Positions 1 to 44,434 of a stretch of 64,000 nucleotides of DNA are shown here, piece after piece. Source of the stretch: Candidatus Pacearchaeota archaeon (lineage in GTDB: Archaea > Nanobdellota > Nanobdellia > Pacearchaeales > GW2011-AR1); the NCBI GenBank assembly GCA_016866955.1, contig VGKT01000002.1, positions 16,072 to 80,071 of the forward strand. Reading direction: 5' to 3'. The notes below the pieces were generated by a model that saw only the letters and a program-made list of their open reading frames with translations, did no database searches and was not told the DNA's origin. The position numbers were made by a program, and so were the translations under genes. Numbering within the stretch: position 1 is the first letter of the stretch; each line of letters opens with the position of its first letter.

Positions 1-58
1 CTGTACTTTGGTAACTAATGCGCCCATCTTATTTTTAGAAATAACAATCTCTTAAACC

Positions 59-1964: not shown

Positions 1965-2225
1965 CTACCATTCTTTCTTTTCAACTAACAGATACTCATC
2001 ATCATGCTTGGGAGCATTCTGAAACATTCTTTGACGAAACACTTCATCTGCTTTTTTCCCCATTCCTTCCTTTCGGACTCCAGAAGTCTGTGTTACGTTC
2101 CCCTCTTTTACTTTCGGAAGCTTCACCTTTGCCAATTGCTTTCCAAATGAAGTGAGTATCTTCTTCGCATCTTCTTGTGCTTGTGCTTGTAAGGTAACCA
2201 TCTCCATTCTAAAGAAAGCGAGCAT
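1965..2225 (-). CDS. hypothetical small protein
   Basis: 86-aa ORF upstream of the TrmB regulator. No recognisable motif. Confidence 0.3.
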   Translation of the reverse strand: MLAFFRMEMVTLQAQAQEDAKKILTSFGKQLAKVKLPKVKEGNVTQTSGVRKEGMGKKADEVFRQRMFQNAPKHDDEYLLVEKKEW

Positions 2226-2233
2226 AAAAAGGT

Positions 2234-2956
2234 TTAGTTTTTTAGAATAGGGGTGGCTTCCTTGTACGTAGCAAGAAAAAGCTTCTTCATAAGTTTTGCA
2301 AACGGTTTATCACGAATAAGTAAAGTAGCATCAGATTTAATCAATCCAATCATAACTTCTTTATCATCAATAATGGAAAGAGCGATTCCTTCATTTTCAA
2401 TTTGACGATAATTTTTTTCAACTGTAATCCATTTATCAACATTCTGTTTTGTTTCAACATCATAACGCGTTAATGTTTTCAAATCAACATTTCGTTTAAC
2501 ATCAGCATCATGTATTCGCACCCATTCAGGTTTAAAGTCTGCTTTCCATTTAACATAATAGGAATACTTTTTTGCAACAGGAAGCAGTTTAACCAGTGTA
2601 TGAAATCCTTTATCTCCAAATTCAACAATCACAGGATCAACAGCTCTTTCAGTATATAGTTTTTGCAAACGTTTAACACTTCCACGAAGTTGATTGAGAG
2701 AAGTAGTACGTTTTTCAATAAGCTCGGAAAGTTGTTGAGGAGAAGTAGGAGCATACTGTTTAGTAGGGGCAGGTATAACACTTACCAGCGTCTTATGAAC
2801 TAAACTCTCTAAGATATCATAAATGCGACTATACGAAACACCACTCTTCGCGCTCAATACACTCGCAGGTAAAGTTCCCTGCATCAATAACGTATGATAT
2901 ACCTTAGCTTCATTTTTTGTCAATCCTAATTCTTGCAAATCTTCAATATCAGTCAT
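2234..2956 (-). CDS. TrmB-family transcriptional regulator
   Basis: N-terminal wHTH (LGLTKNEAKVYHTLLMQGTLPASVLSAKSGVSYSRIYDILESL) and a C-terminal TrmB-like domain. Confidence 0.75.
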   Translation of the reverse strand: MTDIEDLQELGLTKNEAKVYHTLLMQGTLPASVLSAKSGVSYSRIYDILESLVHKTLVSVIPAPTKQYAPTSPQQLSELIEKRTTSLNQLRGSVKRLQKLYTERAVDPVIVEFGDKGFHTLVKLLPVAKKYSYYVKWKADFKPEWVRIHDADVKRNVDLKTLTRYDVETKQNVDKWITVEKNYRQIENEGIALSIIDDKEVMIGLIKSDATLLIRDKPFAKLMKKLFLATYKEATPILKN

Positions 2957-6430: not shown

Positions 6431-7741
6431 TTACGGTGTTAATCGATCTCGATCTCGAGGAAACATCGTTGCTTCTCGAATATTATCCAATCCGCATACT
6501 AATTGCGTCATACGTTCAAGTCCGATACTCCATCCTGCATGTGGTGGTGCTCCATATTTGAAACTTTCAATATAATCAGTAAAATCTTTTGGATTCAGTT
6601 TCTTTACTTTCAAACGTGTCAGCAATAAAGTGGGCAAATGAATACGCTGTCCTCCAGAGGTAATTTCAAGTCCTTTGTAAATACAATCAAATCCTTCACT
6701 TAATTCAGCCTTAGCATCTTCTCCCTTGGGCATTAAATAAAAAGCACGAAGAGATAATGGCCACGAATGTACAAATACCATATCATCAGGATAGAGTTCT
6801 CCCAATTTCTTTTCAGCTTCAGGAGATAAATCTTCTCCATAAGCAATTTTTATCTTATGTTTCTTCAAAAGAGCAATTGTTTCTTCATAGGAAAAGTAAT
6901 GCGCCTGAGGAACCTTGAGTGTTACTCCAAGTAAAGCAAGATCGGCCGCATTCTGTTTCAACACTTCCTCAATCATATGTTTCAAAACTTCTTCTTCATG
7001 TTTCATAATACTCATTTGATTTTCAAATGCAGCTTCAATATCCATTTGACGAATTTCATTGATATGCCGTACCGTATTATGTTTCTCAGCACGCCAAACT
7101 GGAGTCACCATAAACACTTTTTCAACACTACAAGCAAGCATTTGTTTATACAACTGAGGACTTTGTGCTAAACAACCTTGTTTCTCAAAATACTGTACTT
7201 TAAACAAATCGGCTCCCCCTTCAGAAGCGGCAGAGATAACGCAAGGAGGTTGCATCTCCAGGAATCCTTTTCCTGCAAAATGTGCACGGAATGCTTGTAA
7301 TAAGGTATGTTGAATCTTAAAGATCGCTTGAGTTTTTCTTCGATGAAAATCAAGAAATCGAGTATCAAGACGTTTAGGTAATTCAGTTTTAGAAAAATCA
7401 CTGACATCAATAGGCAAAGGATTCTCCGCTCCATGTACCACAACAAGAGAGGTGGGGGCAAGTTCTCTTCCACCAGGAGCTTTCGGAGCTTTTTTTACAA
7501 TCCCTTTCAACAAAACAACACTCTCTCGATTAACTTTGCCCATCGTATCAAATACACTCGCATCAGTTTCTCCTTTAAACCCAGTCACTTGAATTTCTCC
7601 GGAAATATCACGTACAACAGCAAACCGTAATTTACCTAATTCTCTACTATCATACCACCATCCTGCAAGCGTTACTTCTTTCCCTTCATCTTTAGAACTA
7701 ACATCTGCAATCAATACGCGCTTCTCAAATGAAACTGCCAT
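6431..7741 (-). CDS. aspS: aspartyl-tRNA synthetase (archaeal type)
   Basis: N-terminal OB-fold anticodon-binding domain, class II core and terminal motif 3 GLERMTQLVCGLDNIREATMFPRDRDRLTP. Confidence 0.9.
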   Translation of the reverse strand: MAVSFEKRVLIADVSSKDEGKEVTLAGWWYDSRELGKLRFAVVRDISGEIQVTGFKGETDASVFDTMGKVNRESVVLLKGIVKKAPKAPGGRELAPTSLVVVHGAENPLPIDVSDFSKTELPKRLDTRFLDFHRRKTQAIFKIQHTLLQAFRAHFAGKGFLEMQPPCVISAASEGGADLFKVQYFEKQGCLAQSPQLYKQMLACSVEKVFMVTPVWRAEKHNTVRHINEIRQMDIEAAFENQMSIMKHEEEVLKHMIEEVLKQNAADLALLGVTLKVPQAHYFSYEETIALLKKHKIKIAYGEDLSPEAEKKLGELYPDDMVFVHSWPLSLRAFYLMPKGEDAKAELSEGFDCIYKGLEITSGGQRIHLPTLLLTRLKVKKLNPKDFTDYIESFKYGAPPHAGWSIGLERMTQLVCGLDNIREATMFPRDRDRLTP

Positions 7742-7775: not shown

Positions 7776-8066
7776 CTATTCGCATAAAACAATGTTCTCT
7801 GCACGAGGATCATTCCAAATTTCAGAGAATTGGGTAAGATTCGAAACAGGTACCAAAGAAACAACTTTTCCTTGTTCACAATGCACCAGCACATCAATAC
7901 ACTGGTGCTGGTCATTACAAATAGCAGTTGTCCAGGTATATGTTTTTTCAGACTCAATAGTACCAACTACTTGACCCGTCACACTTCCCTGACCTAAAAA
8001 ATACCCTCCACCAAAGGCCCCCACTATAAGTAAAAGTGCTCCCCAGATAAATAATTTCATCATCAT
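7776..8066 (-). CDS. small secreted/membrane-anchored hypothetical protein
   Basis: N-terminal TM/signal (MMMKLFIWGALLLIVGAF) and 4 Cys. Overlaps the gatE stop by 4 nt. Confidence 0.4.
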   Translation of the reverse strand: MMMKLFIWGALLLIVGAFGGGYFLGQGSVTGQVVGTIESEKTYTWTTAICNDQHQCIDVLVHCEQGKVVSLVPVSNLTQFSEIWNDPRAENIVLCE

Positions 8067-9493
8067 CCAACCACCTTCTGCAAAATATCCATTGTTTTTT
8101 TCTTATCAATACCAGTACCAAGTTTTCCAATCACCAATCCCATATAGGCATTCGCTCGTAATCCCGGTTTTTCAGCAACAAGAGCACGGATAGTTTGTTC
8201 AAGTGCATTCTCATCAAGTCCAGGAGCAGGTAAAGAAGATGAAACACTCTTTCCCTCAACAACACTCTTCAATACTCCTTTAACGTGCCCTTCTGCAAGG
8301 CGTCCTGAAGCAACATATTCCAAAATCTCATCATAAATCGCTTCAGTCAACACTGAAGCACGTTCATCAGCAGTCATATGTGCTTTTGTTCCCACTTCTT
8401 GTGTCCACAACGTAATTAATTTAGCAGTTAATACAGGAGATACCGCATGTCGTTTTACAAGTGTAGTATACAATGGCACATACCCATCCAACACCAGAGT
8501 AACAAGATCCGAAGAGAGCCCTTGTTTCAAAAGATCTTGTCGAATATCGTGTTGTAAACGAGGAAGGGATTTCTTAAGTCCATCAAGTCGTTCTTTAGAA
8601 ATATACAACAAAGGGAGATCAGTTTCAGGATACATGCGTGCTTTCCCGGGCATTGGACGAAGAAACTTTGTTGTCCCATCAGGTAACGCCTGACGAACTT
8701 GACTAGCCCCTTGTTTCTCACTTTGCTGTCGAGCAATTTCAGTCAGAATCGTCTGTTCCATCATCGCCACATCTTGAAATCCTTTTACTTCGACACGAGG
8801 ATGTCCCGGACTACTGATGTTCACATCCTGACGAATCGTTCCAATTCCTCGTTTCACCTTACATGCACGAAGAATCTCCCCCAATTTCAATGCAGTTTCC
8901 TTTACCTGTACAGGAGTTGTCAAAGTAGGAGCAGTAGCAATTTCAACCAAAGGAATTCCTAAACGATCAAGACGATACACTACTTCTTTTCCTGATTTTT
9001 CTGAAACTAAGCGCGCAGAATCCTCTTCCAAACATACTGTGTCAATAGGTACCTTTCCAAACGAAGTTTCAATATAACCATTACGCGCCAATACAACCGT
9101 ACGCTGAAAACCAGAAGTATTCGAACCATCAATCACCAACTTTCGCATAATCTGTGTATGCTGATACACTTCACAATTGAGCAATAACGCCACACGTAAC
9201 GCCTCATCCAAAGCAGCAGGAGAAATAAGATGCGGAGGTTCTTCATCTAATTCAACTAAACAAGTCGAATCATGATATCCCTCGTACACAAACGTCTTCT
9301 CTTTCCCCGCTTCATGCTGCACAGCAACATCAACCTCCCCCGTCTCTCCAGCAATAGCATGCAACTTTCGTGTCACCCGCACGTCACCAGCATCTTGCCG
9401 TAAATAGCCCGGACACGCACAAAACAGTTTCCCTGTGTCTAATTGCTGATGTATCTCAAGTCCTGCCTTAAAACCGAGTGTTGGGGAGCGCAT
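8063..9493 (-). CDS. gatE: Glu-tRNA(Gln) amidotransferase subunit E (GatE-like, short form)
   Basis: GatB/GatE-family N-terminus (GLEIHQQLDTGKLFCACPGY...) with the GatE-characteristic YEGYHDSTCLVELDEEPP segment. At 476 aa it is shorter than typical GatE. Confidence 0.75.
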   Translation of the reverse strand: MRSPTLGFKAGLEIHQQLDTGKLFCACPGYLRQDAGDVRVTRKLHAIAGETGEVDVAVQHEAGKEKTFVYEGYHDSTCLVELDEEPPHLISPAALDEALRVALLLNCEVYQHTQIMRKLVIDGSNTSGFQRTVVLARNGYIETSFGKVPIDTVCLEEDSARLVSEKSGKEVVYRLDRLGIPLVEIATAPTLTTPVQVKETALKLGEILRACKVKRGIGTIRQDVNISSPGHPRVEVKGFQDVAMMEQTILTEIARQQSEKQGASQVRQALPDGTTKFLRPMPGKARMYPETDLPLLYISKERLDGLKKSLPRLQHDIRQDLLKQGLSSDLVTLVLDGYVPLYTTLVKRHAVSPVLTAKLITLWTQEVGTKAHMTADERASVLTEAIYDEILEYVASGRLAEGHVKGVLKSVVEGKSVSSSLPAPGLDENALEQTIRALVAEKPGLRANAYMGLVIGKLGTGIDKKKTMDILQKVVG

Positions 9494-9510: not shown

Positions 9511-9528
9511 GAGATTATAAAAAACTAC
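9511..9528 (-). promoter_or_regulatory. conserved gat promoter element (BRE/TATA) upstream of gatE
   Basis: GAGATTATAAAAAACTAC. The TATA box ends 23 nt before the ATG. Near-identical copies lie upstream of gatD and gatB. Confidence 0.6.
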
Positions 9529-9553
9529 TGGCTAGAAAGTAAAGAAAGGAAAT

Positions 9554-10531
9554 TTAGCCTTTAGGAGTAACAGTATACTTGAATCCGTAACGTTTAGTAT
9601 AGCGATTTAATTGCGCTTTGATCTCTTCACTCCCGATGTTACCTCGTAAAGAGTAGCGAGCAAAGCGACTATTTGCAGAATCTAAATGAACATGTGTTTC
9701 ATGATCTTTGTATCCATTTGTCATACTTTGAAATCCACTCAAAATACCTTTCATAGTATATGAAAGACCTTTCCCTCGTAAACCAGAAAGCTCAATTTCA
9801 AAAACACGATTAGAACGAAGCATTGTCTCAAGATGCTCTGCAGAGTTCAGGACTTGAGAAGCAATAAATTCATGAAAAAGATTTTCAGTAAATGACGGTT
9901 TCTCTAGTTGACTCTCCCGTGATGCTCGATCTTTAAGAGTTTTATTAAGTAATCCAAGATACAGTTCTCGATGACCTTGAGTAATAATTGCAGGAGTATA
10001 TCCTCGTTGTTCTAAAGCGAAATTTTGTACAAGACGAGCAGTTCTTCCATTTCCATCTCCATACGGGTGAATACGAATCAGTTCAATATGTGCTTGAGAA
10101 GCTCGAATAACAGGATGAATGTCCGTACGTTCATTTAAAAAATAACAAAGATTATCAATAGCAGAGAGAATACGTTCAGGAGGAATACCTGATAAATCTC
10201 CAAAAGTAACTTCCCCGCTTCTAAAATAACGAGCAATATTAGGACGAGGCTCAACGATACTTCCTAAAACAGCAAAAGTAGTTTTATCAAACCCATGTTC
10301 TGCAAGATATGCACGTGCTGAACTTAAATTTTTAATGTACTCTGAGCGTTTTTGCGCAACTTGCTTATTAGTAGGGCTATCCTCATTTTCAATTTCTAAA
10401 TTAGAAGAATGTTTATCAGAATCACGAATGAGGCCTGTAAATACTTCTCGAGCAAGACTACGAGAATATTCAGGATGCGTATTAATTCTCCCTATAGCTT
10501 CATCGATTTTTTTCAGAGTTTTATAAATCAT
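9554..10531 (-). CDS. Fic/DOC family protein (putative AMPylase)
   Basis: Canonical Fic motif HPYGDGNGRTARL. Has its own TATA-like element (GGTTTAAATAGGG) upstream. Confidence 0.85.
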   Translation of the reverse strand: MIYKTLKKIDEAIGRINTHPEYSRSLAREVFTGLIRDSDKHSSNLEIENEDSPTNKQVAQKRSEYIKNLSSARAYLAEHGFDKTTFAVLGSIVEPRPNIARYFRSGEVTFGDLSGIPPERILSAIDNLCYFLNERTDIHPVIRASQAHIELIRIHPYGDGNGRTARLVQNFALEQRGYTPAIITQGHRELYLGLLNKTLKDRASRESQLEKPSFTENLFHEFIASQVLNSAEHLETMLRSNRVFEIELSGLRGKGLSYTMKGILSGFQSMTNGYKDHETHVHLDSANSRFARYSLRGNIGSEEIKAQLNRYTKRYGFKYTVTPKG

Positions 10532-10594
10532 AAAGATTTGACCTAAAAACCCTATTTAAACCTTCCTATTTGTAACCTTTTAATAGTAACAACA

Positions 10595-11857
10595 CTAGCA
10601 AACCAATCGTTCACTGAACTCCCCCGCAACGTTTTCAAGCATTTTCTTTTCCAAATCTTTCTTCCATCCATAATGCCCGAGTATCCAACCCAACTTAACT
10701 AACGCCGTTTCAGCCAAGAGGTCTCCTAAAAATACCACCCCTGCATCAATAAGCTCTCGCCCGTTACTATACACGTACGGATCAACGCGCCCATTGATGG
10801 TTTGCGTCACACACCCGACAAAAAATCCTGCACGAATATGTTTTTTCAAGAGAGGAATCCAACTATTCCCTGATTCACTTACAGGTAAATGACCGAATCC
10901 GCTTGCTTCTACAATAATCCCTTTATATTTCAAAGCATAATAATCAAGAATATCAGGAGATTGCCCAGGATAAAATTTCACTAACGCAATCTTATCACTA
11001 CACACTGCATCAACCACACAAGGTTTGGTATGTCGAGGAGTAAATGAGCCAGTATACGTAACTCTATCGGGCCAGACCTTCGCAACAGGAACAGTATTCA
11101 CTGGTTGAAACGCATCTCTGCGAGAAGAATGTAATTTTCGCACTTTTGTCCCGAGCAATGCTTGACAATAGTCATCAGATTCGGTTGCGTGCCCCACCAC
11201 AAACACTCCAGCCGCTTTATCAATCACCATCCGAGCAGCACACTGGAGATTCAGATGTGCATCACTACTCGGGCGATCAATACTCCGCTGTGAATACGTT
11301 AACACCACTGGCTTCCCCAGATCTCGAAGCATAAATGAGAGAGCTGCAGCCGTATAATGCAAAAAGTCAGTACCATGTGTCACCACCACTCCCTGAATTG
11401 CAGGATCATTCACCAGGTTTCCTACTTCCTGCGCAATTAATTTCCAATGCTCGCTATCCATACTTTCACTCGCAATCTTAAACGGAATACGAATCACTTT
11501 CACCTCAACCATTTGAAATAATGCTGGATAATACTGTACGAAATCTTCGACAGAAGCCAAGGGTTTCACTCCCCCTGTCTTTGGATCCAGCACAGAAGCA
11601 ATCGTTCCCCCGGTAATCACCATCCCAATAACCGGTTTCCCAGAAGAGCGGCGAACAACAGAAGGAAGTTGAGAAACAGGAGCAGAACCAAGTACTTCTC
11701 CTCCTAAAATGTGATCAGCAGAAATACCAATATTATAGCCGCTTCCCAATTTCAATAAACAAATGCCCGGCTCATGACTTTCCAATACAGTACCTTCCAC
11801 TTCCTCTTGTGCAAGACGTAAGCGTACGCGATCTCCTGGTTTTCCTATAAAAGCCAT
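10595..11857 (-). CDS. gatD: Glu-tRNA(Gln) amidotransferase subunit D
   Basis: Asparaginase-like motifs (VITGGTIAS, VVTHGTDFL) following an N-terminal GatD-type domain. Confidence 0.9.
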   Translation of the reverse strand: MAFIGKPGDRVRLRLAQEEVEGTVLESHEPGICLLKLGSGYNIGISADHILGGEVLGSAPVSQLPSVVRRSSGKPVIGMVITGGTIASVLDPKTGGVKPLASVEDFVQYYPALFQMVEVKVIRIPFKIASESMDSEHWKLIAQEVGNLVNDPAIQGVVVTHGTDFLHYTAAALSFMLRDLGKPVVLTYSQRSIDRPSSDAHLNLQCAARMVIDKAAGVFVVGHATESDDYCQALLGTKVRKLHSSRRDAFQPVNTVPVAKVWPDRVTYTGSFTPRHTKPCVVDAVCSDKIALVKFYPGQSPDILDYYALKYKGIIVEASGFGHLPVSESGNSWIPLLKKHIRAGFFVGCVTQTINGRVDPYVYSNGRELIDAGVVFLGDLLAETALVKLGWILGHYGWKKDLEKKMLENVAGEFSERLVC

Positions 11858-11873
11858 ATCTTCCTACTATTGA

Positions 11874-11892
11874 GAAGGTTATAAAAAACTAC
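11874..11892 (-). promoter_or_regulatory. conserved gat promoter element upstream of gatD
   Basis: GAAGGTTATAAAAAACTAC. The TATA box ends 21 nt before the ATG. Confidence 0.6.
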
Positions 11893-11907
11893 GTATATAA
11901 AAGTAAG

Positions 11908-12321
11908 TTAATCCTTCTTACACCAAATCACATTGAGATAAGGGGGCCAGCTCGAACTTGGCAAAACAGTTACATGGGTAATCGGGGTTCTCCAACTTTT
12001 ATCTGAATTAGTCGTTTGAACCGACACATCATGCGCATGCACATCAGATCCACCCGTTCCCCCATAAGTAGCTGCACCTCGCGTAGTCTTGCCATCTAAA
12101 GCAGAAAATCGTGTCCAACCTGAAGGGCACGTCATATTAAACATAATAATTGCTCCAGAAGGAATACCTCCCAACGCACTCAATCCTTCTATTTCATTCG
12201 CACTATGTCCAAACACCGCAGGGTTAGCAGGGTTAGAATTATACGCCACTACTCCAACTACTAATAATAACAAAGCGAGTACAAAGAATCGTGTCTTTGT
12301 AATCATCACCTCCACTTTCAT
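11908..12321 (-). CDS. secreted/membrane-anchored protein, paralog of 15521-16780
   Basis: N-terminal FFVLALLLLVVGVVAYNSNPANPAVFGHSANEIEGL is nearly identical to the 419-aa protein. The DNA is about 90% identical over about 115 nt. Cys-containing C-terminus. Confidence 0.55.
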   Translation of the reverse strand: MKVEVMITKTRFFVLALLLLVVGVVAYNSNPANPAVFGHSANEIEGLSALGGIPSGAIIMFNMTCPSGWTRFSALDGKTTRGAATYGGTGGSDVHAHDVSVQTTNSDKSWRTPITHVTVLPSSSWPPYLNVIWCKKD

Positions 12322-12354
12322 AATTCAAAGGAGTAAAAGAACTATTTAAATGTT

Positions 12355-13860
12355 TTAATAGCTCTTAGCCCAATAGGCAAGAGTATATGTTTTTTCACCT
12401 GTTTGCACACATACTCCTTCTTTCGTTACTTCTTCAATTAAACGGGTTGTCGCTCCGTCAGTTGCATCCTTCAATTTCTTTTCAACACGAGGATCATCAA
12501 CCATATACACTTTGACTAATTTCCGTTCCTTAATCCCTTTTTGTAATTCTTTAAGAGAAGAAGCAGTTACAATTTGACTATCAAGGAAATGCTTCGCCTT
12601 AGCATATAAATCATGCTGAATAGTTTCCAATAATGTTTCAATATACGTTTTCACATTTCCTAAAGGTACTATTTCTTTCACACCTGTATCTCGGCGTATG
12701 ACCACTACCTGTTGTTTTGCTAAATCTTTTGGCCCTAATTCAACACGAACTGGAACCCCTTTCATTTCCCATTCATTAAATTTCCAACCAGGAGAATATC
12801 CTTCTCGATCATCAATTACAACAGAAAAGGGATGTAACGAATCACGTAATGCACGAGCTTGTGTAAGCACTTGCACTTTACTTTCATCAAATAAAATAGG
12901 AACAATAACGATTTGCTGTTTTGCCATTCGTGGAGGAATAACCAATCCTTTATCATCTCCGTGTACCATTACCAAACCCCCTAACAGACGTGTAGAAATA
13001 CCCCAGGAAGTCGGCCAAATTCCTTGTTGAACTCCTTGTTGATCTAAGAAAGAAATATTAAACGAGCGCGCAAATTCTTGTTTCAAAGAATGACTTGTTC
13101 CCATTTGCAATGCCTTTCCATCAGGCATAAGCGCTTCTACAGTCATACTCATATCCGCACCAGGGAACTTTTCAGCCGTACTCTTACGACCAGCTAATAC
13201 AGGAATTGCTAATTCTTGTTCGATCAATTTTTTATACGCTTGAAGCATTTCACGCATATTCGCTCGCGCTTCTTGTTGAGTCGCAAATGCACAATGTCCT
13301 TCTTGCCACAAAAACTCACGAGTACGCAAAAGAGGTTTCGTTTGTTTTACTTCCCATCGTATCACATTACACCATTGATTCAGTTTCATCGGTAAATCTC
13401 TCCAACTTCGTATCCATTTCGCAAATGAATCATAAATGATCGTCTCCGAGGTAGGGCGCAAAGCCAGTAATTGTCCCTGCTCTGTTCCTTTAATATAAGC
13501 AAGTTCAGGAGCAAATCCTTTTGCATGTTCCGCTTCCTTTTTGAAAAAAGAATCAGGAATTAAAAGTGGAAAATAAGCATTGTGCACTCCTTTTTCTGCC
13601 AAAACTGCATTGAAAGTAGTTTGAATGCGTTCCCATAAGGCATAGCCATTAGGTCTCAAAATCATAAATCCCTGAATAGGAGGATAATCAATCAATTCTG
13701 CCTTTTGAATAACTTGAGTATACCATTCAGAAAGGTCCTTAGATTTAGAAACCGAAAGCCCTTTTGTATCAACAGGGGTTTTGACAATCGATTCTGAAGG
13801 TTTCGATACTGTCGAAGATTTGATAGTACGTGCAGGTTTTCCACCCATGCTCCTTATCAA
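12355..13860 (-). CDS. proS: prolyl-tRNA synthetase (archaeal/eukaryotic type)
   Basis: Class II core, with the C-terminal zinc-binding domain ending in Tyr (...LAYWAKSY) characteristic of archaeal ProRS. Confidence 0.9.
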   Translation of the reverse strand: MIRSMGGKPARTIKSSTVSKPSESIVKTPVDTKGLSVSKSKDLSEWYTQVIQKAELIDYPPIQGFMILRPNGYALWERIQTTFNAVLAEKGVHNAYFPLLIPDSFFKKEAEHAKGFAPELAYIKGTEQGQLLALRPTSETIIYDSFAKWIRSWRDLPMKLNQWCNVIRWEVKQTKPLLRTREFLWQEGHCAFATQQEARANMREMLQAYKKLIEQELAIPVLAGRKSTAEKFPGADMSMTVEALMPDGKALQMGTSHSLKQEFARSFNISFLDQQGVQQGIWPTSWGISTRLLGGLVMVHGDDKGLVIPPRMAKQQIVIVPILFDESKVQVLTQARALRDSLHPFSVVIDDREGYSPGWKFNEWEMKGVPVRVELGPKDLAKQQVVVIRRDTGVKEIVPLGNVKTYIETLLETIQHDLYAKAKHFLDSQIVTASSLKELQKGIKERKLVKVYMVDDPRVEKKLKDATDGATTRLIEEVTKEGVCVQTGEKTYTLAYWAKSY

Positions 13861-13891
13861 GAAGGCCTACTTTATAAATCGTACCGAAAAA

Positions 13892-14046
13892 CGGCCCCAG
13901 GAAGAATCGAACTCCCGTTCTCAGGTTGCTTCGTATCGCACCACCGGGGTGATACGTCCTCCAAAAGGAGGATGATGCGTCAAGGAACCGTGGTTCCTTA
14001 CGCTACGCTCCGAAGCCTGATGTTCTATCCACTAAACTATGGGGCC
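13892..14046 (-). tRNA. tRNA-Arg (anticodon TCG) with a roughly 82-nt intron in the anticodon loop
   Basis: Hand-folded. Acceptor GGCCCCA/TGGGGCC, D-arm GTTT-AGTGGATA-GAAC, anticodon stem TCAGG/CCTGA, loop CTTCGG^intron^A, T-arm GGGAG-TTCGATT-CTTCC. Intron placed at the canonical 37/38 position. Confidence 0.55.
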
Positions 14047-14072
14047 TCACAAAACTACCTCATGCTCCCTTT

Positions 14073-15443
14073 TTAAACTTTGGACAAAGCTTGAAGAAGA
14101 AGCTTTCGAGCAAGAGTATAGTCTGCTCGCTTAGCACTCGCCTTCATAACCGCACCCATCAAAAAGTCAAGTGCTTTCACTTCTCCGGCTTTATAATCGC
14201 TTACTGCTTTCGGATGTGCATGCAATACAGAAGTGATAAAGCTCAAGAGCTGTTTTTCATCACGAATAGTGCTTTCAGCAACAGAAGGCATGCTACTCTG
14301 AGGATACCATGAGTTCAGAATTTCTTTCGCTTTCAAAGGAGTAAGTTTTCCACGTTGCACAAACTGTAAAAGTGCACTAAAATGAGCAGGTTGTATGTTC
14401 ACCTTTTCTAAAGAAACCTTATGATAGTTAAGAAAACGCAATAATTCAACCGTCACCCACGGAGCAGCGAACGCTCCATCAACTTCTTGTGCAACCTGCT
14501 CAAAAAAAGTAACCAAATCAATATCTGAAGCCAAGAGCTGTGCATCGCTCGAAGAAAGTTTATATTGCTTGACAAGTTTTGCACGTGTAGCATCAGGAGA
14601 TGCAGGTAATGCCGTACGAATATCGTGCACAAAAGATGAAACAAGTTCTAACACAGGTATATCAGGATCTGCAATAAATCGATAATCTGCAGCAGTTTCT
14701 TTCGAACGCATTACACTCGTTTTTCCTTTTACTGCATCCCATCGTCGAGTTTCTTCAACGTTCCCCCCTTCACGAGCTTGTCGTTCAAATTCAAACGCAA
14801 TAGCTTTTCCAATTTCATCAATACTATTAACATTCTTAATTTCAACACGTTTGCTAACACCAGGAATATTGATATTAACATCAACTTTGATACCAGCATT
14901 TGCATCAATTGCTTTCAAATAAGTAAGATGATGCACCAATTTTCCTAACCAGGCTTGCACTTCTTCTCCCGTTGAAAAATCAGGAGCAGTTACAATTTCA
15001 ACCAAGGGCAATCCTGAACGATTGTAATCTACGTTCCCGGTAGTCGGTTCCCAACTCGCAGGATCTTCTTCAAGATGCATCTCACTAATCTCAATCCCTT
15101 GAAAGGTGCCCTTAACACCCAAAGGAGTCGCGCCAGTCCCACTTAACGTCATCTGATATCCTTTTGGTAAATCAGGCCAGGCATAATGTTTTCGTATCCA
15201 AGGCATACGTGCATTCACCGTACATCCCAAGACCAAAGCAATTTGTACCGCTTTACGCACTGCTTCAAGATTCGGAGCACGAGGTTTTGCTCCTGGCTGT
15301 CCCGTACAGGTTGGACAAATCAACGTATTCGGAGCAAGCCCACGTTCACGTGAAGCAATACACGTACAAAACAATTTCTCACGTGTATTCAAATAACAAT
15401 GAATTTCAAGGCCAATCATTCCTTGAACCAGTTTCTGTTTCAT
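14073..15443 (-). CDS. gatB: aspartyl/glutamyl-tRNA amidotransferase subunit B
   Basis: GLEIHCYLNT..KLFC.C, ICPTCTGQPGAKP, RKHYAWPDLPKGYQ and a C-terminal GatB/YqeY domain (KAVSDYKAGEVKALDFLMGAVMK). Confidence 0.85.
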   Translation of the reverse strand: MKQKLVQGMIGLEIHCYLNTREKLFCTCIASRERGLAPNTLICPTCTGQPGAKPRAPNLEAVRKAVQIALVLGCTVNARMPWIRKHYAWPDLPKGYQMTLSGTGATPLGVKGTFQGIEISEMHLEEDPASWEPTTGNVDYNRSGLPLVEIVTAPDFSTGEEVQAWLGKLVHHLTYLKAIDANAGIKVDVNINIPGVSKRVEIKNVNSIDEIGKAIAFEFERQAREGGNVEETRRWDAVKGKTSVMRSKETAADYRFIADPDIPVLELVSSFVHDIRTALPASPDATRAKLVKQYKLSSSDAQLLASDIDLVTFFEQVAQEVDGAFAAPWVTVELLRFLNYHKVSLEKVNIQPAHFSALLQFVQRGKLTPLKAKEILNSWYPQSSMPSVAESTIRDEKQLLSFITSVLHAHPKAVSDYKAGEVKALDFLMGAVMKASAKRADYTLARKLLLQALSKV

Positions 15444-15460
15444 AAGTGTATACTAGTAAA

Positions 15461-15478
15461 GAGGTTATAAAAAACTAT
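15461..15478 (-). promoter_or_regulatory. conserved gat promoter element upstream of gatB
   Basis: GAGGTTATAAAAAACTAT. The TATA box ends 21 nt before the ATG. Confidence 0.6.
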
Positions 15479-15520: not shown

Positions 15521-16780
15521 TTAATTCTTCACACAAGTATACATGTTACTATATGCATTAGACGTTTTGTCTGAAGGTGTAGCATACGAAACACTATACA
15601 CAAGTTGAGTATAGCCGCTTGGACAACTAGTTGCTGGATTGACATCTTGGCACGCAGTTATAAGGAAAGTACCTGCAGTAGCTGCTGCATTACCCTGTCT
15701 ATAATACCCCATACCACACCATGTTCCGGCTGGGATTGATGCGCTTGATCCTGATCCACTTCCGCCACCTGCTGAACAAGAATAATATTCGAAATTGGTA
15801 TATGAAGGACTTGTATAGCTTGCGGTATAACAGTATGCACTATTTGAAGCAGTGACATCAACATTACCGTACACAGTTGTCCCACTTACTGTATGTCGAC
15901 AAAGTCCAGTTGCACCAGATGCATAAACTTGAGCACCGGTCATAGCGGTAGGACCAGTTGATTTCCAAGTACAAGCGCTTGATCCTGATCCACTTCCTCC
16001 ACTCACGCATCGGTATTTACTTGTTACAGCGTAGCCTCTATTCCCACTGCGGTCGGTGTTGCTTGATGCACCTGTTTGGCCTCCATGAGTAAGTTGGATA
16101 ACGACAAAAGAATCTCTTGCATCATCAGTACTCGTAGTCCACAAGAAATCTGAGTCAGCATTTTGAGCCGTTCCTGAAAAACTAAAATGGATTAGTTCAT
16201 CATCAGTAGGTAATCTCTTACCAGCATTCCGACAAGCACCAAAAGCTGCTGGAAAAGTCGCAGGACCAGAATCAACAGCATCCAGAATAAGTTCTGAAGA
16301 TGCGCTTGATCCTGAACCGCCTGAAATAATTGGTAAATACCATATTTTTGCAGGAGGAAGAACGGCTCCGCTAATTCTTTGTGCTTTCCAATACATATTT
16401 TTCTTAATAGGCATCGTAATAGAACTTTGAGAGTATGTTGAATCTCCAGAGGGAAATGCATCCGTGGGTGTAGCAGTAGTTCCTGTGAATAAATTCACTT
16501 GTCCAATTTGAACAGAATAAACAATAACAAATCCGTCATTTGGTGCTTGATACACAGTGTCATAAGCAAAATTTTTTTGATAATCACCAAATTGCAATGA
16601 TGAACCACTCGTTGATCCACTTCCCCCTGCAGCAATCAACGCACGCAATCCTTCAATTTCATCAATACTATGTCCAAACACCGCAGGATTCGCAGGGTTA
16701 GAATTATACGCCACTACTCCAACTACTAATAATAACAGAGCACATACAAAAAACCAACGTTTATTCACCCCTCGTTGCAT
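15521..16780 (-). CDS. secreted modular Cys-rich protein, paralog of 11908-12321
   Basis: Same N-terminal signal-anchor and NPANPAVFGHS..EIEGL segment. Four domains separated by GGSGSGSSA-type linkers. Many Cys. Confidence 0.6.
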   Translation of the reverse strand: MQRGVNKRWFFVCALLLLVVGVVAYNSNPANPAVFGHSIDEIEGLRALIAAGGSGSTSGSSLQFGDYQKNFAYDTVYQAPNDGFVIVYSVQIGQVNLFTGTTATPTDAFPSGDSTYSQSSITMPIKKNMYWKAQRISGAVLPPAKIWYLPIISGGSGSSASSELILDAVDSGPATFPAAFGACRNAGKRLPTDDELIHFSFSGTAQNADSDFLWTTSTDDARDSFVVIQLTHGGQTGASSNTDRSGNRGYAVTSKYRCVSGGSGSGSSACTWKSTGPTAMTGAQVYASGATGLCRHTVSGTTVYGNVDVTASNSAYCYTASYTSPSYTNFEYYSCSAGGGSGSGSSASIPAGTWCGMGYYRQGNAAATAGTFLITACQDVNPATSCPSGYTQLVYSVSYATPSDKTSNAYSNMYTCVKN

Positions 16781-16800: not shown

Positions 16801-17802
16801 CTATTTAAAAGCTTTTGAAGCAAATGTCTGAGCCATTAATAAGGGAAATAAAAGGGTTGCATCCCCAAACACTTTCACATGCTTTCCTGGTTTCAATTTA
16901 CCCCAACTAATGGCCTCTTCAGGTAATGCTCCCGCATCACTCCCATCAAATTCTTGGGCCGTATTGATATATACTGCATATTCCGCCCCATTACGCAACA
17001 TTGCTGCATTCAACAATGCATGTTTAATCACTCCTGCACCCAAGATAACCAAACCTAAGTTTTGAAGCCCAATCGTCGCATCATTCAATCGTTGCGTATC
17101 CTTCGCAATATCAATCACTAGCTTCGGATGTTTGAACATACTAAAATACACATTATCTCCTAATGCCCCATCAGTCAATGCCGGACAGAATAATCGAATC
17201 CCCTGCTTCCACGCCCAGTAACAAATACTTCGTGTATCATTAATCTTCTTTCCCATCGCCCAGACAATATCACTAGGAGAAAGAGGAACTCCTGTTTTCA
17301 CACTTTCGGCATACAATTCATCCAATAACGGTTGAAACCATTTCTCAAATGCAACATATCGATTATTCGGTGCAAACACGTTACCAATACGATTAATACC
17401 CTTTGCACGAAGTTCTTTCCCCGAAGCATGAAAATCGCCGATATAAAAATCACCCAGACATTTGATAATATCTTCTTCAATCGCTCCTGCCGTACATACT
17501 CCCAAAGTAATATGCTGATGTTCAAACAAATAGCGAATACTCTCACGCACACCACTTGAGACCATATTACTCGTAAATCCAATAAAAATAGAAGCCTGTT
17601 CACTTCGCATCGTTTGCACAACCCCCACCGCATCAGCAAAAGCACTGGCCTGAAACCCGGTAGAGGCAAAACTAGCTAAAAGTTTCTCATAGTGCACACC
17701 CTCATTAAATTCATATCCTTTCACAGGAGTGCCCCCTACATCTGCACTTCTTCGCAATAAGTTTTTTCGAGCAATCTGTTCACGTTTCATCCAAAAAAGC
17801 AT
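16801..17802 (-). CDS. dys: deoxyhypusine synthase
   Basis: DHS-family motifs (GFTSNMVSSGVRE, TDGALGDN, LGAGVIKH). Confidence 0.85.
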   Translation of the reverse strand: MLFWMKREQIARKNLLRRSADVGGTPVKGYEFNEGVHYEKLLASFASTGFQASAFADAVGVVQTMRSEQASIFIGFTSNMVSSGVRESIRYLFEHQHITLGVCTAGAIEEDIIKCLGDFYIGDFHASGKELRAKGINRIGNVFAPNNRYVAFEKWFQPLLDELYAESVKTGVPLSPSDIVWAMGKKINDTRSICYWAWKQGIRLFCPALTDGALGDNVYFSMFKHPKLVIDIAKDTQRLNDATIGLQNLGLVILGAGVIKHALLNAAMLRNGAEYAVYINTAQEFDGSDAGALPEEAISWGKLKPGKHVKVFGDATLLFPLLMAQTFASKAFK

Positions 17803-23171: not shown

Positions 23172-26100
23172 TCAGCTTTGTAAAAATCGAGGAAGATAAA
23201 CACACTTGAACCAATTCAAGATACGTGAAATATCGGTCAAACGATCATCAAAACATCCTCGCGTTACAAACAGAGATCCTCGAGATTTATCACGACTTGT
23301 TTTAGAGTTCTTTCCAAGAATAACTCCTGCTTCTTCCAATTCTTCATCAGTACCTGGCACATCATCACGTACAGCAGAAGCAGTTCCTGAAGTTCTTCCA
23401 ATCAATGCTTGCACAGCAGCTTGATTCTTTTGTTTCTTCAAACTATCAAGGCTATCTGATTGAGAAGCATCAAGTCGTACATTTTCAGGATTAGATGGAA
23501 TAATTTTTTTACCAACAACACAAACAAGTTTTTTACTATCAAATTCCCCCTTACGCTTAGTACACATTTCCTCAGCAAGACTCTTACAATCAGCAGGACA
23601 CAACGCACGAGTTTCTCCTGCTTTAGTATCACAGATCTTATCTCCACATGCACTAGGAAGCGTAGTATTAGTAACAATTCCAATAGTACATCCCAAAGGA
23701 TTAGTACAAGTAATCGGAGGTACAAGGATATCTCCCGAACAAGGACAACTACCTGCACAAGCAACAGAAGTAGTCGCTTGACCTGCAAAACAAGGATTCA
23801 TATAAGAAAGTCCGTTTGCCCCACACACAGGAGACGCAGGTTGGCTTGCACAAGAAGGAACACAAGGGCCATAATAAGCAACAGCTACTTGCGCTTGTGC
23901 AGCTTTACAGGGGCTAGAATACGAAATACCATCCTCTCCACATACTAATGGACCAGCAGATATTGAACCAAATAGTGTAGGGCAAGTGGTTGAAATCGTA
24001 GAACACACTCCTTGATATGCAATCGTTATTCCTACTTGAGTAGCTAAACAAGCTTTATCATACGTTACTTCATTTGTACCACACACAGGAGCAGAAGGTT
24101 CGCTTGCGCACGCATATTCAGATCCCCCAGTACATTCATAGAATTCAAGAGACTGCATAACAACCAAAGTATTCTGAGGATTACCTGGCGTTTGTACTTC
24201 CAACTTCGTAAACGTAATACGATAATAGCGTGCAGAAACAGGGGAAGCAAGCATCCGTTTATTCACAGTGCGTGCATCACTCAAAGAAGCACTATCTCGT
24301 ATCGCCCAAGTAACACCGTCATCAGAAGACTCCAGAACAAACTGAGCAACTAATGGATTCCCTCCAAGAAGTTTAAATTGATACGCACCAATAGTACGAG
24401 GAGCAATAAATGAATACTGAATCCATTTTGGTGCACTAGCTGAAACAACCTGCGATTGCCAGAAGTTTGTCCCACCTGAGAAAGCACCCCAGGCCTGTCC
24501 TTGCGGACCACCAACCGTTGGATAATTCAATGCTTCACTATTACTTGATACGGTACCAACTGAAGAAGTATAACTTGACATCGTAGGAACAATAGTACCA
24601 CTCAACGATGTACACCCTGCCTGATTTGTATTCCCCGCACCATCGCTCACACACGTACAGCTACCTTCAAAGCAAGTATGAGTAAATCCAGGCAAACAAA
24701 GTATACCCACTGGAGGAGTCGTACATGCACCAGTAGAAACAATACTCACTCCAAGTGTTTCTGCTTCACATGAATTACCATACGTTACTCCATCATCCCC
24801 ACATACTGGTTTATACACTGCAGAACAAGTAACTGGTTCAGGAATTTTAACACAATGCAACTTTCCACAACCACTCAAACAGCCATTCGCGTCATAAGAA
24901 TTATCTTCAAGTGTACACTTTCCCCCAATTGGAATAAACACTTGAGGACAGGTAACTACATCGGCACAAAGGACAACATCATCTGATACTATATTTCCAC
25001 AAGTAATTGGACATCCCTTTTCATTGAGAACAGGGGCACCATAATGATATCCTTTAGGAGCACGAGGACAAGTCAAAGGCCCACATGCATCTCTGCCATT
25101 ACCTTCACAAGATAACGTACCGCAATCAATTTGACAACCAAAGTGATCAATACCTGGATTGGAATAAGAACAATCCGCAGGGGCAATACAAATCGGAGCA
25201 ACAGGACATACAAACGACTCTTCTCTGAATGCTGCACATTCTCCATCAGAACACGAAGTACAAGGTACAAAATCTCCTCCACGTTCAGGTGAAACACCAG
25301 GAGCAACACAATATAACTTGCTCACATAACACTTCTCTCCTTCACATGAATCAACCTTTTGCCCAAATTCACCAAAGGGATGTTCACTAATATAACATTC
25401 TTCATATAAGTTTTCAGAAACAAAAGATCCTTTACTATCGGTAAAACGTAACGCATGACGAGAATCTCTTCCAAAAGGATAATAGGCAAATTGTTTTGCA
25501 CGTTCACGTCCCTGACAAATACCAATAAAATTACGACTATATTTGCACTCCCAATAGAAAGCAACTCCCCCTCCTAAAGTATCAGCCCAACAAGCATTTC
25601 TATAATCTTTGCCATCTGCACCACACACAGGAGTATAATCGCTCGTACAATGATTTCCACCATCTCCTCCACCTTCTCCTCCACCTTTTCCTCCACCTTC
25701 TCCTCCACCTTTTCCTCCACCAACAATAGTAATGATAGGAGTACACAAAACAGAATCAATAGGTGCATGCGTTAAAGAATCAACACACACTCTTCCAACC
25801 CAAATAGGATCTCCACGAACAGTTTTTTCTCCACATAAATCAACATACCAATTATCAGGTTCGCTCGTCACATCATTACATCCGGCAGGACCGGGAAGAA
25901 TATACGAAAATGATGCTTGAGAGGTTCCCAAAGGATATACGCCTGAATAAAGTACCATCTCTCCGCTCATACCGTAAGCTCCAAAGAAGCTAGGCAACGG
26001 TCCAACTTTGCCATCTGTTCCTCCACCCGTCCCCTTATGAACAAGTCCTCCACGAGAATCAACCAAGTACCATGCTCCATCACCCACGTCTAATTGAAAA

Positions 26101-29100: not shown

Positions 29101-30767
29101 TCAGCAGGGAGAGTAATAATAGCCTGGCTCCCAATAACTTCAGAAGAAATAATCGTAACCGCTACCCCTCCCACGTCTATCGATGGACCTGGTTGCCCGG
29201 AGGGACGATTAGGATCCCCAACAACCTCATCATGAGGAAAAAGTTTTTCAATAGGCTCAATCTTAACTCCCTCAGGAACAGGACCACAAGAAGGATCCCA
29301 TCTTTCAGTAGATTTAATTTTTGGAAGAGGATAATTCTCTGCTCCAGACCACACCCGGCTAGGAGCAGGTGTTTCACAGGCACCATATCGACTGGCAGTC
29401 AATTGTAGATTTGGGTTTTGGCAAGCAGCAACACGAAGAGTACACGAGTTTGAATAGGTTTTACCATCAGAGCCACAAACTGGAGTATAGTCCGCAAGGC
29501 ACCAGGTAGGGCATACAGTTGGGTTAGGAGTAGGAGTAGGAGTAGGAGCAGATTCAGTACTACATTCTTTTGTCACACGCACCCCTTCAGCAGAACAGAA
29601 CGAATCCCCTTCTTGTGCAAGTAATTCTTCACAACTTGGACGAGGACATAACATCTTACAATCTCCTGCTGCCACATCACCTGCAATCGTACATCCTTGC
29701 GCTTCCGCTTGATCAGAAAGTTCTGGACAGGTTCTCTTCGCAATCGTTTCATACACACTTTCAGGAGCAGGTTCCCAATTACTTGTATCCTTAACATAAT
29801 ACACGGGGAGAATTTTAAAATCACCGTCAACAGTACCATCTCCATTCAAATCACCTTCTATTCGTTGCCCATCAGGTACGCTTTCCCCTCCTTTTTCGCT
29901 CTCAACATCCGTACCAGTACAACCCTGACAAGTAACAAGCACTGGTTCACCTGGACCAGTTTTTTTAACCAAACCAATAACAGATAAACCTTCAGGAAGA
30001 GTATGCCCTTCTCCTTCTTCTTGAGGATACTTATATACATCTGCAAAATAATACTTATCATAACCATCTCCACCATCATCTCCACCATCACCATCTCCAC
30101 CATCATCTCCCCCTTCACTTCCGCCATCTCCCCCATCTCCTCCATCTCCCCCATCTCCTCCATCTCCTCCATCTCCCCCATCTCCTCCATCTCCCCCATC
30201 TCCTCCATCTCCCCCATCTCCTCCATCTCCTCCATCTCCTCCATCTCCACCATCATCTCCACCATCTCCTCCATCTCCACCATCATCATCATCATCACCA
30301 TCTCCCCCACTTCCGCCATCACCATCATCACTCAAATATTCAAACGTTACATGTCCCGTCGGAGAAAGTAAATCTGCAAAAGGAGCAAAAAAAGCAGCAA
30401 GGGGAGTTCGAGCAGGTTCAGCAGAAGGAACATCACTAAATCCAAACGCACGCAACACAAATAACGTACCCTGTCGAGTTGCTGCCACATCAGTTGTATA
30501 CAAAGGAACGGTAAAACAATCCCCAAGATTATCAGAGATACATTTCAAAGTACCTGAGCGAGGAACACTATCGGCAATATACAAAAGCGTTTCAGGTTTA
30601 ATCAATCCGTAAGTATATCCTGCAACCCAATATTGAATATCTTGTTCTCCAGCAAACGCACCATCTCGATTTCTATCAAAATTAAATGTTTTTAACGAAG
30701 CACCCGAAACAAAACTAACCAATAAACAAAGTCCAATTAAAAAGAAAACAAAACGCATTAAGCGCAT
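23172..30767 (-). CDS. giant secreted multidomain surface protein (2531 aa)
   Basis: Signal peptide, (GD)n/(GGDG)n low-complexity tract, PTPT linker, six Kazal-like modules (C..YxPVCG(S/A/D)DGxTYxNxC), F5/8 type C discoidin-like domain, DUF4214-like module, dockerin-like [11 protein letters not shown] motif, and GGGK/GGGE repeats. Confidence 0.85.
30060..30300. repeat. short-period coding repeat (ccatctcc[t/c])n encoding the Gly/Asp tract of the giant protein
   Basis: Seen directly in the sequence. Confidence 0.85.
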
Positions 30768-34060: not shown

Positions 34061-34062
34061 AC

Positions 34063-34082
34063 GAGAGAGAGAGAGAGAGAGA
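34063..34082. repeat. (GA)10 dinucleotide microsatellite between the TATA box and start codon of the 714-aa gene
   Basis: gagagagagagagagagaga sits between the ATG (34058-34060, minus strand) and CTATATAAA (34085-34093). Confidence 0.95.
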
Positions 34083-34084
34083 CG

Positions 34085-34093
34085 CTATATAAA
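34085..34093 (-). promoter_or_regulatory. TATA box of the 714-aa secreted-protein gene
   Basis: CTATATAAA lies 24 nt from the leaderless ATG. The spacer is entirely (GA)10. Confidence 0.55.
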
Positions 34094-42494: not shown

Positions 42495-42527
42495 AAGAAA
42501 GATAATAAAAAAAATAGCTTTTAATAC

Positions 42528-43208: not shown

Positions 43209-44434
43209 TTTTGATCCTTTACAACATACCTATAGATAGATACGACCCATACAATAGGATATATCATAAGATAAATAAGGGTATAAAAAACTATCCTTGA
43301 AAATACTTTAAAAGATAACTTTTTCATATAGCCTGTTTTTATCAGAATAAATCTATAATATATCATTGAAGAGATAAACAATAAAATCAAATAAAATATA
43401 ATTACTGAAGGATAATAATTGAAGAGATTGAAATGAAATAAACTAGCACCTAAAGATGAAGAATAAATTAAAGTTAAAATTGATGAAAATAATTGTTTCA
43501 TTAATAAGTATAATGAAAAAAAGAATCCAAATAAGCTTAAGAAAATACTAAGAGAGACAAAAGGCAAAACAAACACTCCAAACATTCCTTTTTTGAAGAA
43601 TATTGAACGATATTTGAAGAGTGCTTGCAAACCTCCTAATCCCCATCTAGTTCTCTGTCTAAACCATTGTTTGAAAGTAGTAGGAACGATAGTAGATACT
43701 CTAGCATCCAAGCACATACCGGTTTTATAATTATGACTCAATAAATTCCAAGTTATATCTATATCTTCAGTTATACTAGTTGGATCAAATCCACCCACTT
43801 TTTTAACATAAGTTTTTCTATAAACACTTAAAGGCCCATTAGTTACATAAACAGAATCTATAAAATCTAATAATTTTCTTGTCCAGCCCATTAGTAAGTA
43901 CTCAACTGCTTGAATCTTTGATAAATAATTATTATCAGAATTTCTAGCGCTTACAAAAGAAGTAACTGCAGACATTCTAAAATCTTCAAAATATCCCACT
44001 ATTTTTTTCAATGAATCTTTTGAAGGAAAACTATCTGAATCTACCACTGCAATTAATTCTCCATTTGCTAATTTTATTCCCTTGTTTAAAGAATCAGCTT
44101 TTCCTGAGTTTGGTTTATCTAATAATATAACCTTCTTATATTTAGAAACATATTTTTGAATAACTTTCTTTGTCCCATCTTTACTGCCATCATTAATTAC
44201 TATAATTTGTATTTTATCTTTAGGATAATCTAAATCCAATAAATGATCAATTGTATTTGCAATACTATCTTCTTCGTTATATGCAGGAACTAAAAAACTA
44301 ACAGAAGGATAATTTTTAACTGGAGGAGAATAAAATAATAATTTTCTATTCTTGATAAACAATATGACAAAAAAAGCAAACATTATGATTGCAATAAACA
44401 TTAAACCAAAATAAATCCTTATTATTAACTCCAT
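43202..44434 (-). CDS. processive GT2 glycosyltransferase (chitin/cellulose/hyaluronan-synthase-like)
   Basis: VPAYNEE, DSDS (DxD), TEDID and QRTRW (QxxRW) motifs with C-terminal TM helices. Confidence 0.75.
   Translation of the reverse strand: MELIIRIYFGLMFIAIIMFAFFVILFIKNRKLLFYSPPVKNYPSVSFLVPAYNEEDSIANTIDHLLDLDYPKDKIQIIVINDGSKDGTKKVIQKYVSKYKKVILLDKPNSGKADSLNKGIKLANGELIAVVDSDSFPSKDSLKKIVGYFEDFRMSAVTSFVSARNSDNNYLSKIQAVEYLLMGWTRKLLDFIDSVYVTNGPLSVYRKTYVKKVGGFDPTSITEDIDITWNLLSHNYKTGMCLDARVSTIVPTTFKQWFRQRTRWGLGGLQALFKYRSIFFKKGMFGVFVLPFVSLSIFLSLFGFFFSLYLLMKQLFSSILTLIYSSSLGASLFHFNLFNYYPSVIIFYLILLFISSMIYYRFILIKTGYMKKLSFKVFSRIVFYTLIYLMIYPIVWVVSIYRYVVKDQKW

Follow-up and report, generated by a model that had tools for sequence, protein, structure and literature searches.

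A non-generic core-promoter variant shared by gatB, gatD and gatE in a Pacearchaeota archaeon

In a 64-kb stretch of a Pacearchaeota genome (contig VGKT01000002.1; the whole stretch is called the window below), three minus-strand genes for tRNA-dependent amidotransferases, gatE, gatD and gatB, are preceded by the same 13-nt invariant block, TAGTTTTTTATAA in gene sense, with the extended form (G/A)TAGTTTTTTATAA(C/T)CT and the pattern form RTAGTTTTTTATAAYCT. This element is a distinct promoter variant and not the generic promoter of the genome, and it marks gatB, gatD and gatE but not gatA or gatC. On balance, it is probably a selected, gene-set-specific variant of the core promoter that gives the three genes a common initiation setting. 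Of this genome, the analysis covered the window and its continuation by some 7 kb on the left (L209) and some 2 kb on the right (L213), and about 71 kb was searched for the block. The near-identical strings that the initial annotation had reported before the three genes were recovered at the following positions:

9511..9528, minus strand: gatE core promoter element; plus-strand text GAGATTATAAAAAACTAC, gene sense GTAGTTTTTTATAATCTC; ATG at 9493
11874..11892, minus strand: gatD core promoter element; plus-strand text GAAGGTTATAAAAAACTAC, gene sense GTAGTTTTTTATAACCTTC; ATG at 11857
15461..15478, minus strand: gatB core promoter element; plus-strand text GAGGTTATAAAAAACTAT, gene sense ATAGTTTTTTATAACCTC; ATG at 15443

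Because these strings had been quoted as plus-strand text for minus-strand genes, the labels given to their two sides were swapped: GAGGTT, described as the side of the B recognition element (BRE), is the side downstream of the TATA box, and CTAC, described as the downstream side, is the BRE side. When the three upstream regions are aligned, 13 adjacent bases and two more just downstream prove invariant, between flanks that are unrelated, and by inspection the block has no dyad symmetry beyond the quasi-palindromic character of the TATA box itself. In each of the three genes, exactly 21 nt separate the last A of TATAA, and with it the end of the TATA 8-mer TTTTATAA, from the ATG, a spacing also seen in 42 other promoters; the leaderless spacing claimed at the outset is thus that of generic boxes, and the range of 21-23 nt narrows to the single value of 21.

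In the window, the 15-mer with at most two mismatches has 4 matches against 0.46 expected, and the 13-mer with at most one mismatch has 5 against 0.64 expected, three of them being the gat sites. When 1653 promoter pairs were scored, the gat pairs reached 17, 16 and 16 of 18, and among the other 1650 pairs two reached 16. For three draws from the generic promoter profile described below, the chance of identity at all 13 positions is 8e-10; correction for all 30,856 triples raises it to 2.6e-5.

This profile was built from 42 ordinary promoters, the 60 nt upstream of 58 open reading frames (ORFs) of the window having been listed. Upstream of most window ORFs, a TTTAWAWA-type box stops about 21-22 nt short of the ATG, with A/G-rich bases 5' of it (generic box TTTAAATA with an A-rich BRE), which fits leaderless transcription from standard archaeal promoters, whose BRE and TATA architecture is reviewed in PMC7289017. 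The profile is informative only at -34/-33 (A) and from -29 to -22 (TTTWWAAA). Generic promoters have A at -34/-33 in 56-62% of cases, whereas the gat promoters have T-34, A-33 and G-32, an atypical BRE, and they are invariant at positions that the profile leaves free (G-32, T-31, T-30, C-20 and T-19). Ranked against the profile, they fall in the middle of the table (24th, 33rd and 34th of 58). The block precedes none of the 55 other window genes, including those for ProRS, the non-discriminating AspRS (ND-AspRS), GlyRS and LeuRS; the tRNA and ribosomal-protein promoters of the window differ from it, and the extra 7 kb of L209 do not contain it. In 79 related genomes, its 12-mer core TAGTTTTTTATA stands at promoter position in 2 of 943 non-gat genes. 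The claim that the likeness goes beyond a TATA box therefore holds, and within the approximately 71 kb of this genome the 18-nt element was found before no unrelated gene. That we are looking merely at the consensus promoter of the organism, as the TATA-like composition and standard spacing might suggest, is hardly tenable within this scope, given the absence of the block from the other window genes, the middling ranks and the different tRNA, ribosomal-protein and aminoacyl-tRNA synthetase promoters.

Comparison with close relatives separates the histories of the three sites. Contigs at 94% GatD identity have identical promoters and are hence uninformative. At 82-84% GatD identity, the gatD box is GTAGTTTTTTTATACTCTC in L206 (also quoted as GTAGTTTTTTTATAC), GAGTTTTTTTATAGTCTG in L207 (also quoted as GAGTTTTTTTATAG) and AACTTATTTATAGCGTTC in L001. 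The gatE box in the same three loci is TACTTTTAATAACCTCTTCTC, the sister and outgroup state being TACTTTTAATAACCTC, and more distant outgroups have TTTAATAAC. From the TACTTTTAATAACCTC state the gatE promoter of the window differs at 5 of 17 positions, and 4 of these 5 differences create identity with the gatD/gatB box. At gatB (72-74% identity), the box reads GTAGTTTTTTATAGCAC in L215, which comes from the same sample as L206, GTAGTTTTTTATAGCGT in L216 and GTAGTTTTTTATAGTTC in L218; the gatB of L217 has no such box. A core, GTAGTTTTTTATAG, is common to L215, L216, L218 and a gatB fragment in L001. In sister species, GTAGTTTTTTATA is retained at gatB despite divergence of the flanks and of the genes upstream, the gene before gatB being the deoxyhypusine synthase gene dhs in L215 and a paralogue of a 137-aa protein in L218, so that the block travels with gatB. 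In 141 kb of same- and sister-species contigs, the block was found nowhere except upstream of gat genes. Aligning promoters across relatives, as had been suggested, thus bears out the core at gatD, in many lineages, and at gatB, in three of four sister loci and the L001 fragment, but restricts the gatE element, and with it the three-way identity, to this one species.

Some of these loci contain pieces of gat genes. In L001 (76-390), gatD is immediately preceded by a 79-aa N-terminal fragment of gatB that carries the full motif. In L217 (15-380), what immediately precedes gatB, at the start of the contig, is the 3' end of a gatD-like (asparaginase) gene. These are rearrangements or assembly joins. 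A likeness between gat promoters was also seen in L046 (Nanoarchaeota MAG CSMAG_2465), where gatE and gatB, dispersed and on opposite strands, agree at 45 of 52 promoter positions between -49 and the ATG (ACATTTTTCT..AAAAATATTATAAACCTTGTTTCTTTTT). Here, independently of the window, one gat promoter was copied from another or converged with it.

A wider comparison covered 80 gatD-centred loci (L001-L080) from GTDB species representatives, 1.2 Mb in all, in which the neighbourhood gatB-proS-gatD-(fic)-gatE-aspS is widely conserved. The exact 12-mer occurs 22 times in this DNA: 11 times upstream of gatD, 3 times upstream of gatB, once upstream of gatE (the window itself), once upstream of an AsnRS gene, twice upstream of other genes and 4 times with no ORF downstream. 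At gatD it is found in four lineages, between which GatD identity is at most 61%. The T-rich box TTTTTATA stands at promoter position in 46 of 78 gatD genes, compared with 34 of 916 other genes (Fisher's test, p = 2e-36); the corresponding counts are 5/26 for gatB, 4/53 for gatE, 0/45 for proS and 0/29 for aspS. In several relatives (L052, L053 and L076), 8-10 nt separate the end of a tRNA gene from the T-rich box of gatD (…GGTTCGAATCC…).

The orthologues of gatE, proS, aspS and gatB mostly have another box, TT(T)AATAAA(C)(TC), which is also rare elsewhere, and an HtrA-like protease keeps a private box, GTTAGGTTTTTATATGTTA, in a dozen genomes. The boxes of gatD, of gatE/proS/aspS/gatB and of the HtrA-like family are each rare (1-4%) among other genes. 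As far as these sequences tell, the keeping of a family-specific TATA flavour by orthologues is a general property of the clade and no proof of a regulon. The TTAATAAA box was considered as a mark of a translation regulon in the relatives and rejected as not exclusive: it precedes gatE, proS, aspS, gatB, gatA and RtcB, and likewise ion-channel, protease, nucleotidyltransferase and DUF genes. A metagenome-wide scan for TAGTTTTTTATAAYCTY returned at least 120 loci and says nothing about specificity; among the matches listed, all were apparently chance A/T-rich hits in unrelated DNA and none lay beside gat genes.

From the observed identity of the element, its promoter-like position, its non-generic character and its conservation or convergence, we propose that it serves as core promoter for three leaderless genes that are each transcribed on their own, and that it is composed of a BRE-proximal RTAG, a TATA box rich in T (TTTTTTATAA) and the bases that directly follow. 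In this Pacearchaeota lineage, the variant would be the ancestral state of gatD and gatB and be kept there by selection; gatE would have gained it recently, by a few substitutions within this species. Since the TATA-binding protein (TBP) and transcription factor B (TFB) read exactly these bases, the three genes would initiate alike: the same 13-18 nt would confer equal initiation strength and a like response to whatever acts on this DNA, and GatD, GatE and GatB would be produced at matched levels with no need of an operon. Binding by TBP and TFB, a start at the ATG and matched expression as the selected trait are here predictions from sequence.

The other copies of the block and the remaining amidotransferase genes were located as follows:

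43279..43296 (13-mer at 43281-43293), minus strand: orphan fourth copy, ATAGTTTTTTATACCCTT, at the 3' end of a glycosyltransferase gene
2235..2247, plus strand: inverted near-copy (12/13), TAGTTTTTTAGAA, at the junction of the TrmB-like and gatC-like genes
1..56, minus strand: start of gatA, with ATG at 27; the gene runs off the window
1965-2225, minus strand: gatC-like ORF (86 aa; NF000681, E = 2e-10)
2234-2956, minus strand: TrmB-family regulator gene

The orphan copy has no ATG at +21, the next long ORF starting about 70 nt downstream (43208). It is contained in a low-GC island (40001-44000; 25.5% against 36-43% elsewhere) with GT2-family glycosyltransferases and hypothetical proteins. The inverted near-copy may be due to chance. 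DNA past the left edge of the window (L209) completes gatA, which encodes a protein of 430 aa (TIGR00132, 463 bits); its promoter is an ordinary-looking ggTTTAAGAG at 49-56, 21 nt before the ATG, and lacks the gat block. The gatC-like ORF, 8 nt behind the TrmB-family gene, has neither a box nor a gat element of its own, and the two genes apparently form one transcription unit. In L001, an 83% relative, this adjacency is not kept, and gatC has its own generic promoter. Within the pathway, gatA and the gatC-like ORF of the window serve as negative controls.

Several observations weigh against a common initiation setting as the full explanation. Both gatA and gatC, whose products GatB needs stoichiometrically, lack the element, so that subunit matching cannot be the whole story. 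In most relatives the gatD (TTTTTATA) and gatE (TTTAATAAACTC) boxes differ, although the two genes encode one enzyme. A permutation test comparing gat promoter similarity within and between the 80 genomes was not significant (p = 0.07-0.45), so that matching of gat promoters within a genome is no clade-wide rule, the window and L046 being exceptions. The private boxes of other gene families imply that part of the conservation may be ordinary promoter inertia, and the specificity of the block was gauged in about 71 kb of this genome. The initial annotation had seen here a dedicated regulon signal that keeps the amidotransferase subunits co-expressed. What stands of this is the restriction to three related genes and the conserved core at gatD and gatB. 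In a regulon, all members of the pathway would be expected to carry the motif, but gatA, the gatC-like ORF and the genes for ND-AspRS and ProRS are without it, and co-expression of the subunit set finds no support in the TACTTTTAATAACCTC state of sister-species gatE or in the permutation test. 'Regulon' would be a presumptive name for this set.

Some of the alternatives involve the genes around the three elements. Nearly all window genes lie on the minus strand, and the identities in this region were assigned by NCBIfam; those given earlier for gatE, gatD, gatB and for the intervening Fic, proS and tRNA genes were confirmed by NCBIfam and Rfam. The genes of this region, all on the minus strand, are:

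16801-17802, minus strand: deoxyhypusine synthase, dhs (NCBIfam)
15521-16780, minus strand: hypothetical protein of 419 aa, h419
14073-15443, minus strand: gatB, 456 aa (NCBIfam)
13892-14046, minus strand: tRNA with intron (Rfam only; missed by ARAGORN)
12355-13860, minus strand: ProRS, proS (NCBIfam)
11908-12321, minus strand: hypothetical protein of 137 aa, h137
10595-11857, minus strand: gatD, 420 aa (NCBIfam)
9554-10531, minus strand: Fic (NCBIfam)
8063-9493, minus strand: gatE, 476 aa, short form (NCBIfam; in Pfam, GatB_N only)
7776-8066, minus strand: ORF of 96 aa, orf96, overlapping the end of gatE
6431-7741, minus strand: non-discriminating AspRS (NCBIfam)

The upstream neighbours of gatD and gatB, h137 and h419, have paralogous N-termini (82% over 44 aa); they share a hydrophobic N-terminus plus AYNSNPANPAVFGHS, and have a common promoter of their own, TTTAAATAGTTC. 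Members of this family also precede gatD or gatB in the sister-species loci L203, L207 and L218, and in L203 the promoter and 5' region look like a chimera of the two window copies. One could thus regard the block as a trace left by a duplication or by a small mobile element, or as the 3' end of paralogous secreted-protein genes before gatD and gatB. This was rejected, and we give it a very slight chance: the flanks of the block are unrelated, the gene before gatE is Fic, the gatB of L215 keeps the motif behind dhs, and the window has only two members of the h137/h419 family.

The co-directional arrangement invites another interpretation, in which the T6 run was selected as an oligo-T terminator of the upstream gene and the TATA box is incidental. 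Each element does have its T6 run 14-40 nt past the stop codon of an upstream gene that runs in the same direction, in L206 that stop codon is formed by the element's own TAG, and archaeal RNA polymerase stops at short poly-U stretches (PMC7289017). However, across the 80 genomes TTTTTATA is found at gatD no less often with a divergent upstream gene (14 of 18) than with a close co-directional one (16 of 28), and for other genes a co-directional neighbour does not raise its frequency (15/540 vs 8/176). The T-rich gatD box is thus independent of neighbour orientation, which argues against terminator selection, and it is the spacing to the ATG that is fixed, at 21 nt, and not the distance to the upstream stop codon. 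A dual terminator and promoter appears highly unlikely.

Two alternatives concern function more directly. The three promoters could owe their likeness to shared descent of slowly evolving TATA variants and to chance, with no functional coupling. Orthologues that keep their own flavour (gatE, proS and aspS with TTAATAAA, HtrA with its own box), the confinement of the three-way identity to one species and the negative permutation test are all in line with this. It would nevertheless have to accommodate the small probability of the triple identity, the fact that the three genes are exactly the functionally related ones, the direction of 4 of the 5 gatE changes toward the gatD/gatB sequence and the independent parallel in L046, and we hold it to be distinctly unlikely. 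The other alternative is a dedicated transcription factor, a repressor or activator reading RTAG-T6-ATAA where it overlaps BRE and TATA box, that would co-regulate gatB, gatD and gatE and thereby couple both tRNA-dependent amidotransferases to a common signal. Such a factor could be a transcription regulator of a small genome or a TFB/TBP specificity, and the signal could be, for example, amide-donor or charged-tRNA status. The invariant block spans bases that the generic promoter leaves unconstrained, is restricted to functionally linked genes, was kept at gatB and gatD of sister species despite diverged flanks, and is the sequence on which gatE converged; moreover, candidate regulators lie nearby (the TrmB-family gene at 2234-2956 and a double Lrp/AsnC-type gene in L209, 16389-17360), and the inverted 12/13 copy sits at the TrmB/gatC junction. 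On the other hand, typical dimeric operators of archaea look different from this short, A/T-rich and non-palindromic block, the identity ends at the edges of BRE and TATA box, gatA and gatC are without it, the TrmB-gatC adjacency is absent in L001, and the 80 genomes show no signal of within-genome co-evolution. A dedicated factor is therefore possible but rather unlikely, and no test here requires one.

Among known systems, the element is closest to the archaeal core promoter, with which it has in common an A/T-rich 8-mer placed at the usual interval from the start codons of separately transcribed genes; it differs by having RTAG(T) instead of A-rich sequence at the BRE and by the T6 run in its box, and from the ordinary promoters of this genome by being fixed at positions that they leave free and limited to three related genes. 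Archaeal operators that overlap promoters include the TrmB/TGM motif of Thermococcales, NrpR operators and Lrp-family sites. The gat element resembles such regulon operators as a short motif before dispersed, functionally linked genes that overlaps the basal promoter, but it lacks dyad symmetry, extends over BRE and TATA box only, misses two pathway genes (gatA and gatC), and has only candidates for a cognate factor. In bacteria, control of transamidation is based on RNA leaders and operons, with T-box leaders of aminoacyl-tRNA synthetase genes and operons of the aspS-gatCAB type. The goal, coordinated expression of genes for indirect-pathway aminoacylation, would be the same, but in the window the predicted mRNAs are leaderless, the genes are separate units and the signal is DNA upstream of the transcription start. 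Haloarchaea have gene-class-specific promoters that are read by alternative TBP/TFB paralogues, and these provide a likeness in that a subset of genes has a distinct BRE/TATA flavour; here the subset comprises only three genes. A literature search found no gat-specific promoter element described in archaea.

Other features of the window concern the translation genes and their surroundings. GatE, at 476 aa, is short compared with the NCBIfam model lengths of 622-630, and Pfam detects GatB_N but no GatB_Yqey tail. The 96-aa ORF, which overlaps the gatE stop codon by 4 nt and is also present in L001, L002, L206 and L207, has no match in Pfam, NCBIfam or PDB; it may have split off from GatDE or be a new accessory part of it. 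The tRNA at 13892-14046 (Rfam, 49 bits) has an intron of about 83 nt after position 37, its manual folding gives the anticodon TCG (Arg), and a T5 run lies directly 3' of it, ahead of the proS TATA box. Two further aminoacyl-tRNA synthetase genes lack the gat block:

60638-62110: GlyRS
52235-54700, minus strand: LeuRS, bacterial type

The latter scores 942 bits with the bacterial model TIGR00396 and 215 bits with the archaeal model TIGR00395, which suggests a horizontal acquisition. A (TC)n microsatellite, ctctctctctctctctctc, at 34061-34090 on the minus strand fills the gap from a TATA-like box to the ATG of the ORF at 31916-34060, whose 714-aa product has no family match; this tract could be variable in length. 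A giant ORF of 2531 aa occupies 23172-30767 on the minus strand.

The best relatives of GatD come from Pacearchaeota metagenome-assembled genomes, and the host is a DPANN archaeon of the Pacearchaeota/Woesearchaeota type. To our knowledge, almost nothing has been established about gene regulation in DPANN archaea or about archaeal control of the indirect Gln/Asn-tRNA pathway, and in such uncultured organisms conserved promoter signatures are among the few handles available. If a dedicated factor did act on the gat genes, this would be the first aminoacyl-tRNA synthesis regulon described in DPANN archaea, and it could be read from sequence across Pacearchaeota. What has been found is a non-generic core-promoter variant that marks gatD and gatB over long distances and on which a third gat gene has converged, in a clade where individual gene families keep their own TATA flavours. 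If these flavours carry no meaning in terms of strength or regulation, they would amount to tidy but ordinary promoter conservation; if they stand for classes of strength or regulation, the expression class of a gene in an uncultured archaeon could be predicted from its promoter.

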